This document shows, piece after piece, positions 5,537-7,882 of a stretch of 11,368 nt of DNA. Where the stretch lies: IMG/VR virus record IMGVR_UViG_2671180821_000007, one strand, 5' to 3'. The notes under the pieces are model-generated. The model did no database searches. It was not told where the DNA came from and saw nothing but the letters and a program-made list of their open reading frames with translations. The number at the start of each line of letters is the position of its first letter. The stretch's first letter is position 1. Both the position numbers and the translations under genes were made by a program. The DNA is from a virus. Its lineage: Duplodnaviria; Heunggongvirae; Uroviricota; Caudoviricetes.

Positions 5537-7069
5537 CTACCTCAACATGAGATAGCCGCAGAAGTCCACCAGCGAATCGCCCTCGCGTTTTATCACCAGA
5601 GCTTCTTCTGATTTCTGCTGCTCATACAGCAGGCGTTTAGCTTCGTCCTGGTCAGAAAAACGAGTAAGCAGGTGGCGAATCACAACCGCCAGCTCTCCTT
5701 CTATTTTTTCTGCCAGCATGGGGTCGCGTTCGTTCTCCGGTACAACTTCCGAAAAATTGAATATCACCCGACGACGTGAGATCCCCCCGCTGCGGTCACT
5801 GAATGACATGGCGTTATTGTTAACCGCCAGCACTACTGCCGGAATACGCGTTGAGTAGGGGGCTTTGTGTTTCGGGTCAATTGCCACCTTGTCACCGCCT
5901 GTAATGGCCTTAATCCCTGCCCCATCACCAGCGTAGCGGGTCATATCCGGCATGATAATCAGCGAAAAGCCAACCACTAACGCGCGTTCCCTTGCATCTT
6001 CCAGCGCCTTCATGCTTGCCGATACTGTGTTGGCCTTACCCGCCAGCATGGTGCAAATCTCCGCCATCACGCTTTTACCACTTCCCCCTGGACCTGTTAC
6101 CTCAATGAATAACTGCCAGTCGTACCGGTTCGCCAGCACCATGAATAATACAGCCAGTACGCGATCCGCCTTGCGGTCATTCTCAGCCACCGAACGGCGT
6201 AACCACTTCCAGAAATTCGGCGCATGTGTTGCCAGCGTTTCCCCCTCTGCTGGTGGGCTGAAAGGTAATTCACTGGCAATTAACAACCAGTCGTTTTTGT
6301 TATGCTCCCGAAAATTACCTGTTCTGGTATCAAATACCCCGTTACTGAATCCAATCAGGTTACGGGCTGTATTCCCCATTACAGGCAAACTTAACTTCAT
6401 GGTATCGACCGCCGATTTAATGGCGTTCTGCGAATAGCTGATCTCCGCATCAATGAAAATCTGTGCCATAGCTCGCTGTAATTCTTTATCCTGTACTGGC
6501 TCCCATACAACGCCGTTGTAATGGTGAACAGTGTCAGAGTCAGCATGAATCGCCAGTTCACCGCCATAATGTGCCAGGAGAACTTCGCCGCGTTGACTTG
6601 CTCCCATCTGGTTAAGCGCCAGTGATGAAGCGTTATCGTCTTTTACCCGCTCTTTTTTCTTTACAGGCAGTTCAACTACCTTTTTCTTTTCCGCCTGCTC
6701 TGCCCGTTCACGTTCCAGATATTCGCGCCAGTTCTCCCGTTTCTGGCTGTGCATTCCTTCAGGGTAATAATCAGCATCCCTGACACCTGCCGCTGCCAGT
6801 TTCTGCCCGATGGTATTAACAAGCCCCGGACGCAATAACCCCGCCTGGTAGAGACGCACCCGATAGCGTCCGTCCGGTACGATTTGCAGCTTATCCAGTT
6901 CGGCAAGTTGTTGTTCTCCAAGCCAGACAGGAGGCACGCTGTCGCCAGCCAGTCGCCCGTCCTGTTCCTGCCACTGCTTCGCATGTGCCCACGCATCATT
7001 ACCCGCAAAAATGATGACTTCCGTCATTTTGTCACGCGGCTGGTGTTTTAAATTTGGCGCTTTTTTCAT
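5537..7069 (-). CDS. P4-alpha-like replication protein: phage/plasmid primase D5_N-like region plus SF3 helicase P-loop, truncated at its 3' end by the IS3-family insertion
   Basis: Walker A VTGPGGSGKS, with D5_N-like upstream region and helicase-like downstream region. ATG at 7069 overlaps the orf99 stop as ATGA (the track start at 7084 is a GTG). The ORF stops with TAG exactly at the IS boundary, ending ...DSLVDFCGYLMLR. Confidence 0.85.
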   Translation of the reverse strand: MKKAPNLKHQPRDKMTEVIIFAGNDAWAHAKQWQEQDGRLAGDSVPPVWLGEQQLAELDKLQIVPDGRYRVRLYQAGLLRPGLVNTIGQKLAAAGVRDADYYPEGMHSQKRENWREYLERERAEQAEKKKVVELPVKKKERVKDDNASSLALNQMGASQRGEVLLAHYGGELAIHADSDTVHHYNGVVWEPVQDKELQRAMAQIFIDAEISYSQNAIKSAVDTMKLSLPVMGNTARNLIGFSNGVFDTRTGNFREHNKNDWLLIASELPFSPPAEGETLATHAPNFWKWLRRSVAENDRKADRVLAVLFMVLANRYDWQLFIEVTGPGGSGKSVMAEICTMLAGKANTVSASMKALEDARERALVVGFSLIIMPDMTRYAGDGAGIKAITGGDKVAIDPKHKAPYSTRIPAVVLAVNNNAMSFSDRSGGISRRRVIFNFSEVVPENERDPMLAEKIEGELAVVIRHLLTRFSDQDEAKRLLYEQQKSEEALVIKREGDSLVDFCGYLMLR

Positions 7070-7365
7070 TTCTGCTCTCTCCACGCGGCAATCATGTTTT
7101 TCAGTTCCTGTAGTTTTTTATCAACATCCATACATGACACATGGTTATTTCTGGAAAGCGGGATTTCCCGCCTGAATCTGCTAATAAAGATCTCCACGTT
7201 CAGCGAACTATGAAATGAATAGCCATCACGAATAAAATACACACGGTCAAACATCAGTTCTTTTACCGTTACTCTGTTACCGTTCTTATCCAGATAAATA
7301 GCGCCGGGGATAATTTTGGGGTGTGCATAACCGCTGGCAGTCAAGCCAGATAAATACGTTCTCAT
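7066..7365 (-). CDS. hypothetical small protein (99 aa), third gene of the primase operon; pattern loosely resembles DUF4222-type proteins
   Basis: ATG at 7365 (MRTYLSGLTASGYAHPKIIPGAIYLDKNGNRVTVKELMFDRVYFIRDGY...). Stop fused to the primase start. Family assignment is from memory and weak. Confidence 0.55.
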   Translation of the reverse strand: MRTYLSGLTASGYAHPKIIPGAIYLDKNGNRVTVKELMFDRVYFIRDGYSFHSSLNVEIFISRFRREIPLSRNNHVSCMDVDKKLQELKNMIAAWREQK

Positions 7366-7371
7366 GATTAT

Positions 7372-7692
7372 TTATCTCAGATTTGAATCAGTATTCGCTT
7401 TCTCTATGGCATTTAATGCATCTGTGGCATTTTCAATGGTGCACCGTAACGAAATATCAAACTGCCCAAGCATTGCCAGTAACAAGCCAATATTACCCAT
7501 GTCAATGCGCATAGCCTTTTCGTCATATTCCTCATTTTCTGACGCATGCCACATCAGGCTACCAATTGACGCAACAGCCATTGATATATTGTCAGTAGCC
7601 CCATCCGCAGCGGAATAAACCTTTTTAGCAATATCATGCTCACAGTTAAAATGCGGATTAATCAGGTACTGGTAATTGGTCATGTCAGGCAT
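7372..7692 (-). CDS. hypothetical small protein (107 aa), second gene of the primase operon
   Basis: ATG at 7692 preceded by AGGAGG with 6-nt spacer (MPDMTNYQYLINPHFNCEHDIAKKVY...). Overlaps the upstream stop by 8 nt. No family recognised. Confidence 0.6.
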   Translation of the reverse strand: MPDMTNYQYLINPHFNCEHDIAKKVYSAADGATDNISMAVASIGSLMWHASENEEYDEKAMRIDMGNIGLLLAMLGQFDISLRCTIENATDALNAIEKANTDSNLR

Positions 7693-7882
7693 GGCACACC
7701 TCCTGACGAATACGGGCGGCGAATACAGCAACACAACCTGACGGGCAACGGTTACGCGCTTCGCGTTCCGTCCAGGCGGTTACGTGGATGATTTGAGATT
7801 CTCCGGCACTCAGGGCCAGAAAACGCCACACAAAGGCCGTTTGTGTGTGTACAAGGTGTGGTATATGATTTACGGCAACCAT
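7685..7882 (-). CDS. small protein (65 aa), possibly Icd-like (P4 host cell division inhibitor family); first gene of the replication operon
   Basis: ATG at 7882 preceded by GAGGAG with 5-nt spacer (MVAVNHIPHLVHTQTAFVWRFLALSAGESQIIHVTAWTEREARNRCPSGCVAVFAARIRQEVCHA). Icd-like assignment is from memory of the family pattern and of P4 operon order. Confidence 0.45.
   Translation of the reverse strand: MVAVNHIPHLVHTQTAFVWRFLALSAGESQIIHVTAWTEREARNRCPSGCVAVFAARIRQEVCHA

Follow-up and report, generated by a model that had tools for sequence, protein, structure and literature searches.

Three small genes upstream of the primase of an Enterobacterial PICI-type satellite: an Icd-like protein, an acidic predicted hairpin and a divergent DUF4222 protein

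Introduction

Enterobacterial phage-inducible chromosomal islands (PICIs) such as EcCICFT073 and EcCIEDL933 (Fillol-Salom et al. 2018; de Sousa et al. 2023) carry an integrase gene, alpA and a set of small open reading frames (ORFs) that includes the DUF4222/RgdR gene; pri, a repeat-rich ori, ssb and capsid-related genes follow in that order. Their AlpA protein, induced by the helper phage, switches on the downstream PICI genes (PMC6092414). Here we describe a block of three small ORFs that lies directly upstream of the primase gene in an 11,368-nucleotide stretch of DNA from IMG/VR virus record IMGVR_UViG_2671180821_000007 (the whole of this stretch is called the window below). An earlier reading of the letters alone (the original prediction) had taken these ORFs for real genes co-expressed with replication, two of them with no recognisable family. 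All three are of known kinds, already catalogued in a known type of satellite, and only the family of the middle protein, of 106 amino acids (aa), is without a characterised member.

RgdR (ECs1581) is a DUF4222 member whose gene directly precedes the primase gene in Sakai Sp7 / O-island 51. It is an activator of LEE1 and type III secretion and a repressor of motility, and its DNA binding is non-specific; expressed from a plasmid it works in trans on host promoters, in the absence of the replicase, and residue 20, within its RGD motif, affects its activity (PMC3378721). All E. coli PICIs analysed are reported to encode it (PMC6092414), and its reported orthologues show > 77% similarity to ECs1581 (Flockhart et al. 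2012). RgdR, to which the 99-aa protein of the block is related, influences virulence gene expression in enterohaemorrhagic E. coli. Icd of phage P1, from the immI operon c4-icd-ant, is annotated as a cell-division inhibitor, and the P1 record describes icd as "apparently required for expression of ant". An Icd-like gene also occurs, together with a primase gene, in a six-gene prophage locus of strain ECOR61, where expression of the phage accessory gene orf24 leads to cell death and the toxic effector is probably the Icd-like protein (bioRxiv 10.1101/2023.04.06.535777).

The three-gene block and its element

The features of the block are as follows.

7685-7882, minus strand: Icd-like gene, 65 aa, basic (isoelectric point (pI) 8.7), with ATG at 7882 and the Shine-Dalgarno (SD) sequence GAGGAG 5 nt upstream
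7685-7704, minus strand: coupling junction, with SD AGGAGGTG at 7697-7704, ATG at 7690-7692 and the 8-nt overlap ATGCCTGA at 7685-7692
7372-7692, minus strand: 106-aa gene, acidic product (pI 4.5), 107 codons if the stop is counted
7066-7365, minus strand: DUF4222 gene, 99 aa, basic (pI 9.7)
7066-7069, minus strand: ATGA stop-start overlap of the DUF4222 and primase genes, assuming the primase start ATG 7069

All three ORFs match curated or PHROG families and, as had been proposed, they are real genes, running in one direction on the minus strand and closely packed up to the replication gene. The sizes first given, 65 and 99 aa, stand; the middle ORF had been taken as 107 aa and encodes 106, the stop being its last codon. 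A good SD and overlapping start and stop codons, claimed for each gene, are present in two of the three: the strong SD of the 106-aa gene lies within the last codons of the Icd-like ORF, whereas the 106-aa and 99-aa genes do not overlap, being separated by a 6-nt spacer (TAA ATAATC ATG) with a weak GAG about 10 nt upstream. The predicted ATGA junction with the primase is there, given the start at ATG 7069, which agrees with the PGAP annotation of relatives; relatives also show the same 4-nt overlap between DUF4222 and replicase genes in their PGAP annotation, even where the replicase belongs to a different family. As to the two genes said to lack a recognisable family, the 106-aa protein matches PHROG 15327 and 6805 only, while the 99-aa protein is placed in Pfam DUF4222 by a score of 61 bits (cut-off 27); nor is the latter uncharacterised, having an experimentally studied relative at the same position in E. 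coli PICIs (PMC3378721; PMC6092414). The observation is thus partly confirmed and its interpretation partly supported. What is corrected is mainly an annotation-level impression, chiefly that two genes lack a family, and the finding is a largely ordinary one.

In line with the original prediction, the block is conserved in relatives. The 817-bp sequence matches 1316 of 5426 complete E. coli genomes and is at least 80% covered in 460 of them; its annotation there reads "Icd-like protein", "hypothetical protein", "DUF4222 domain-containing protein" and "primase". Satellites of this type are found in a large proportion of E. coli genomes. From IMG/VR, 80 contigs with the 106-aa family were recovered, and among the copies of the same length, on which intactness was counted, every one is intact: all 77 of the 106-aa gene and all 72 of the 99-aa gene. 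At the sequence level all three genes show purifying selection: in the IMG/VR loci, pooled ratios of nonsynonymous to synonymous polymorphism (pN/pS) of 0.33 (DUF4222), 0.36 (106-aa gene) and 0.44 (Icd-like gene; 0.16-0.49 across pairwise and pooled comparisons) were obtained, and variable sites are commonest at third codon positions. No relative with a solved structure was found by sequence for any of the three proteins. None of them matched a PADLOC defence model at E<=0.1, and membership of a defence system was rejected.

By its gene content the element is an Enterobacterial (E. coli-type) PICI-type satellite and not P4. The criteria in the available text of de Sousa 2023 are an integrase, an AlpA-type regulator, a primase-replicase, a capsid-morphogenesis gene and a small terminase, with no tail or holin gene. 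The core order of integrase, AlpA regulator, primase-replicase and capsid-related gene is present in the window and likewise in the intact relative L001, and the Enterobacterial PICI layout (PMC6092414; PMC10085698) is matched. No tail or holin gene was seen in the window, which stops inside the packaging module; in relatives a DUF1441 protein or an annotated small terminase is encoded there. Intact relatives, for instance that of E. coli Res13-Lact-PEB08-01 (NZ_CP062865), occupy a fixed chromosomal site between clpS and cspD, with about 9.8 kb between those host genes. Their genes run int, alpA, ylcI, icd, orf106, DUF4222, replicase, ssb and capsid/terminase-small. The window copy differs from described Enterobacterial PICIs in its two insertion sequence (IS) elements, and its capsid module (a ClpP-type protease plus a major capsid protein) is unlike those of EcCICFT073-type and full capsid-forming PICIs. 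Identity as a P4-like satellite was rejected: a tblastn search with all P4 proteins matched only int, alpha and vis in the window, and it contains no counterpart of sid, delta, psu, epsilon, cnr or orf151. Within this satellite the three ORFs are probably the promoter-proximal genes of the early (replication) operon.

The Icd-like gene and its coupling junction

Judged by sequence, the 65-aa gene is a homologue of P1 icd. Its product scores 64.8 bits against NCBIfam NF033153 (cut-off 25) and shares 39% identity over 46 aa with P1 Icd (BLASTP, E=7e-7), which itself matches the model at 52.6 bits. In P4 the ORF upstream of epsilon, historically recorded as "cI gene product (AA 1-137)", has an Icd-like domain at its C-terminus that also matches NF033153, and of the block's products the Icd-like one alone is shared with the P4 and P1 operons. 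A tblastn search of 50,697 phage records found it once, in a 16.5-kb "induced prophage" record.

The end of the Icd-like ORF (...ARIRQEVCHA*) also encodes the ribosome-binding site and start codon of the following gene. The register of this junction, with the SD followed by a start codon 5 nt before the stop, recurs in L001, L015 and L018, in each case leading into the 106-aa gene, and again in L002/Sakai Sp7 (next gene ECs1578), in P4 (epsilon, with a GTG start), in L008 and in L011, metagenomic relatives being among these elements; at the icd-ant1 junction of P1 there is a 4-nt ATGA overlap. In P1, P4 and the window alike, then, the end of the small ORF overlaps the next start, with the ribosome-binding site inside its last codons, while the coupled downstream gene differs, being the gene of the predicted hairpin protein in the window, Ant in P1 and epsilon in P4. 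On comparison of these sequences the Icd-to-next-gene coupling junction is conserved and common to P1 and P4. In many E. coli genomes megablast homology ends exactly at the junction (query positions 624-625); exchange of what lies downstream therefore takes place at the gene boundary.

Upstream of its Icd-like ORF the window, in contrast to P1 and P4, lacks a C4/cI antisense RNA and the target sites. The Rfam models C4, c4-a1b1 and isrK gave no match in the window at E<=1, while as a positive control the same models found C4 and isrK in P4, and C4 with its target sites in L018; an immunity cassette of the P1/P4 type (C4/cI antisense RNA followed by icd) was accordingly discarded for the window. 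The same result bears on whether at least one of the three ORFs might be non-coding, an open frame lying over a regulatory RNA such as the antisense-RNA immunity cassette found ahead of icd in P1 and P4. In P4 and in L018 there are annotated Icd-like ORFs, extended far at the N-terminus, that do overlie a C4 RNA gene, and a terminator-like hairpin with a U-rich tail (7827-7847, minus strand) lies inside the Icd-like ORF of the window; against this stand, besides the missing C4 match, the protein family matches, homologues with preserved length down to 26-40% identity, the excess of third-position variation and the pN/pS values of 0.33-0.44, and we regard a non-coding origin as very improbable.

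The ECOR61 locus fits a growth-arresting role on induction for the Icd-like protein, by analogy. It also suggests that the block might form a toxic or abortive-infection module, with the Icd-like protein as an effector released on activation by a phage protein and the 106-aa protein as its modulator or antidote. The annotation of P1 Icd as a cell-division inhibitor and the predicted translational coupling and the co-inheritance of the Icd-like and 106-aa genes agree with this. Against it, the PADLOC models are silent on all three proteins; in many genomes unrelated genes follow the Icd-like allele (ECs1578 in Sakai), and the 106-aa protein is therefore not an obligate partner of the Icd-like protein; and no NCBIfam Icd-like match was obtained in L011 and L014 for the ORF that immediately precedes the 106-aa homologue. 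Such a module seems to us improbable.

Several further frames surround the Icd-like ORFs. A long open frame at 7908-8723 on the minus strand, antisense to ylcI, ends just within a 98-aa GTG-initiated frame (7685-7981) that contains the Icd-like gene; equivalent long frames in phase with the Icd-like domain are found in the Xenorhabdus and Erwinia relatives (L007 2899-3993; L006 2651-3562), and L018 2120-2584 is listed with that of the window among long frames of this kind. This suggests that at least some of the long N-terminal extensions of Icd-like proteins are annotation artefacts. L018, an E. coli relative, has two tandem Icd-like ORFs (2120-2774), and a complete C4 RNA with its a1/b1 target cassette lies between the first of them and the 106-aa gene; it looks like a P4-type immunity unit inserted in a PICI-type operon. 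On the plus strand across the block region no ORF matches a family, apart from one shadow ORF (7784-8005) antisense to the 5' half of the Icd-like gene, which matches phrog_4106 (E=2.5e-24), a family probably assembled from such mis-called shadow ORFs.

The 106-aa acidic protein

The 106-aa protein matches phrog_15327 at E=7e-71 over positions 1-105 of 106, and phrog_6805 weakly; PHROG 15327 and 6805 are sister families whose homologues cross-match both. It has no match in Pfam, NCBIfam or PADLOC, and tblastn found nothing for it, or for the 99-aa protein, in the 50,697 phage records; it is uncharacterised, as had been predicted, and satellite-specific. An exhaustive HMMER search of 1.8 billion representative proteins returned 15 matches, of which the informative ones are single-domain homologues of 100-106 aa with 30-69% identity; the remainder are close copies, fragments, longer ORF calls and a few tetratricopeptide repeat (TPR) proteins matched through one short stretch.

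Acidic and not membrane-like, the protein is modelled by AlphaFold as two long helices, 19-51 and 58-105 (mean pLDDT 78). Foldseek against the PDB gave no match at E<=0.001 for the 106-aa model, the best E-value being 0.5; the generic hairpins it does resemble, all at E>=0.5, come from tricellulin, EsxB, HP0062 and UvsY. Membership of the WXG100 (EsxB-like) hairpins was rejected, with no significant family or fold match. A profile search of the PDB gave only a TPR protein, at E of about 0.5. The TPR_12-type phmmer matches trace to one stretch of about 36 residues: residues 50-85 (window 7438-7545), YDEKAMRIDMGNIGLLLAMLGQF, resemble single TPR_12-type repeat units (...YDEKHPSLATTLGNLGLILQDLGQY...) of large repeat proteins. 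A TPR relationship was rejected, there being no Pfam TPR match and one continuous helix in the model at that place.

Homologues of the 106-aa protein are always found in the small-ORF cluster between an AlpA-type regulator and a replicase, in elements bearing integrase and capsid genes. The adjoining replicases are P4-like, DUF927, Sakai-type (710 aa), AAA_25 and Toprim-AAA_25 proteins, and even distant homologues keep their operon position upstream of the AAA_25, DUF927 and Toprim-AAA_25 forms. An Icd-like ORF usually directly precedes the 106-family gene; in L011 a 63-aa ORF lies between them, and in L014 no Icd-like ORF was recognised before it. From these sequences the family is satellite-restricted and known from this operon position alone.

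The original prediction had compared the block with P4, where this position holds small regulators. P4 Cnr (ORF106, DUF5375), epsilon and ORF151 do occupy the same general position, from regulator to primase, and are similar in size, Cnr being also of 106 aa. They have no detectable sequence or profile similarity to either the 106-aa or the 99-aa protein: hhalign against Cnr and epsilon gave a probability of at most 0.2%, and tblastn gave no match. Kinship with the P4 small regulators was rejected, and the likeness is one of position.

The DUF4222 protein

The 99-aa protein matches Pfam DUF4222 (PF13973) at 61.1 bits (cut-off 27) over residues 16-67, and phrog_285 at E=2e-21; by these matches it is a divergent member of the DUF4222/RgdR family. 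Like RgdR (ECs1581; Sakai Sp7 / CP-933C / O-island 51) and its homologue C1493 of EcCICFT073, it is a basic protein of 99 aa with a DUF4222 domain, and its gene lies immediately upstream of, and overlaps, the satellite primase gene, as ECs1581 does ECs1582. The R-x-G-Y core is kept between the two, along with a C-terminal helix. The flanks differ, with the 106-aa gene in the window and ECs1578-1580 in Sakai.

Its predicted fold is a Tudor/SH3-like barrel. The matches from a viral fold library were for the most part small barrels without a name and DUF1653 proteins. RNA-polymerase-binding Tudor-like domains (the UvrD/PcrA C-terminal domain and the CarD RID) show 8-15% identity to it, the small barrel being a very common one, and a link to RNA polymerase through the modelled fold is a lead and not a membership.

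Modular exchange of the block

In L015, L016, the IMG/VR loci L038, L042 and L051, and others, 106-aa and DUF4222 alleles that are 93-100% identical adjoin three different replicase families, the P4-like 605-aa, the DUF927 707-aa and the Sakai 710-aa proteins. Across these replicase swaps the DUF4222 gene keeps its overlap with the replicase gene, and on the other side the Icd alleles are swapped; the three genes travel as a block that is combined with various Icd alleles and with no fewer than three families of replicase, and recombination appears to take place at gene boundaries. An obligate pairing of the 106-aa and DUF4222 proteins was rejected, as either family occurs without the other. 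In the Xenorhabdus locus L007 the DUF4222 gene is directly upstream of the 106-family gene, and two IMG/VR loci have it about 0.8 kb upstream.

These arrangements bear on the possibility that the 106-aa protein, the DUF4222 protein or both are replication accessory factors (a loader, an origin-binding partner or a Cnr-like regulator of copy number) and not modulators of host or helper. The DUF4222 gene adjoins or overlaps the replicase start in 9 of the 11 architectures examined and is directly next to the replicase in essentially all of the 75 IMG/VR loci that reach it, and in P4 the equally long Cnr is encoded immediately upstream of alpha. The joining of near-identical alleles to three unrelated replicases, however, and the presence of distant homologues upstream of AAA_25 and Toprim-AAA_25 replicases, speak against physical pairing with one particular replicase; profile comparison with Cnr showed no similarity, and RgdR works on host promoters from a plasmid with no replicase present. 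A replication accessory role is in our estimate unlikely.

Proposed roles

The explanation that we favour overall, with moderate confidence, is that these are early-operon genes of a PICI-type satellite whose roles would be directed at the host or the helper. A helper phage would trigger AlpA, and the operon would be transcribed. The Icd-like ORF would be translated, and its product may block cell division, by analogy with P1 Icd; its translation would also deliver ribosomes to the 106-aa gene. The predicted hairpin protein, placed where P1 has the antirepressor Ant and P4 has epsilon, would most likely act by binding a protein of the helper or of the host. The DUF4222 protein, which is basic and by prediction Tudor/SH3-like, and whose production would keep pace with that of the replicase, might alter host transcription as RgdR does, by binding DNA or RNA polymerase. 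The idea of "helper-interaction or host-takeover" factors in the original prediction is plausible by analogy, and the effects of RgdR on host transcription give host takeover some precedent.

A number of points weigh against this reading. The modelled hairpin fold of the 106-aa protein is uninformative; epsilon has no sequence or profile similarity to it, and its "antirepressor slot" (Ant in P1, epsilon in P4) is an analogy of position. The 99-aa protein has 31% identity to RgdR, below the > 77% of reported orthologues, and P20-G21-A22 in place of the RGD motif at residues 20-22 of RgdR; because of this low identity, the PGA for RGD and the importance of residue 20, RgdR-like regulation may not carry over to the allele in the window. 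A scan of the minus (coding) strand for sigma-70 consensus promoters found nothing, and no promoter was located; the absence of such a consensus upstream of the Icd-like gene fits dependence on an activator. The copy in the window, finally, is probably defective or inactive, because an IS3-family element splits the primase gene and an IS1 sits between alpA and int.

Three leads come out of the analysis: the Icd-to-next-gene junction shared with P1 and P4, the satellite-restricted acidic hairpin family in the antirepressor slot, and the Tudor-like fold predicted for DUF4222, which suggests how RgdR might act on transcription. None of them overturns current understanding. They could be joined in one bolder scheme, which we hold to be doubtful: Icd-like 3' ends would form a conserved coupling cassette feeding a swappable effector slot (Ant, epsilon, the 106-aa hairpin), PHROG 15327/6805 would be a new class of satellite helper-derepressors or helper-protein binders, and the DUF4222/RgdR proteins would be free-standing Tudor-like RNA-polymerase-binding factors that reprogramme host transcription.

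Other features of the window

The remaining features, in order from the integrase end, are these.

10130-11368, minus strand: integrase gene
9073-9770: IS1 copy, between alpA and int
8734-8943, minus strand: AlpA-family regulator gene, in the 69-aa form annotated in relatives; the frame is open up to 9030
8083-8388, plus strand, divergent: YlcI/YnfO-family gene, 101 aa (NF041551, 59 bits; phrog_6522, E=6e-46)
7883-8082: leader and divergent control region between the Icd-like gene and ylcI, with three TGGTATTCAC repeats and a 15-bp hairpin
5537-7069, minus strand: primase/helicase gene, P4 alpha-like (D5_N + DUF5906), from Pfam and PHROG matches
4324-5480: IS3-family element (orfA 5178-5480, orfB 4324-5142), splitting the primase gene
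Beyond the primase remnant, a minus-strand run: 81-aa ORF, single-stranded DNA-binding protein (SSB) gene, ClpP-type protease and major capsid protein

The AlpA-family regulator matches PF05930 at E=2e-16 and shares 97% identity with the helix-turn-helix (HTH) regulator of L001. The primase segment at 5537-7069 is the N-terminal 510 aa of a gene cut by the IS3-family insertion, with a C-terminal remnant at 4000-4296; it shows 98% identity to the intact 605-aa primase of L001 and 51% to P4 alpha.

In the 200-bp interval between the Icd-like gene and ylcI there are three exact copies of TGGTATTCAC at 7985-8039, in alternating orientation. A fourth match, with one mismatch, lies at 6811-6820; if one mismatch is allowed, 0.68 matches are expected by chance. 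The relatives fetched lack the motif in the equivalent region, and it may be an allele-specific operator. The 15-bp hairpin (7911-7947, minus strand) is some 25 nt upstream of the ribosome-binding site of the Icd-like gene, and the leader RNA folds better than shuffled controls (z=-2.9).

Between the primase remnant and the 81-aa and SSB genes, at 3798-3911, is a dense array of direct and inverted GTTCACC / GGTGAACAG repeats, which gave spurious Rfam matches to microRNAs; its position and form suggest that these are the iterons of the satellite's replication origin. The ClpP-type protease and major capsid protein are encoded by two overlapping ORFs at 505-2372 on the minus strand, while in L001 (6692-8605) they form a single fusion protein with 60-64% identity to the versions in the window. 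The packaging module is different again in a further relative located at the same site on the chromosome, where it comprises a capsid protein, a decoration protein and a small terminase.

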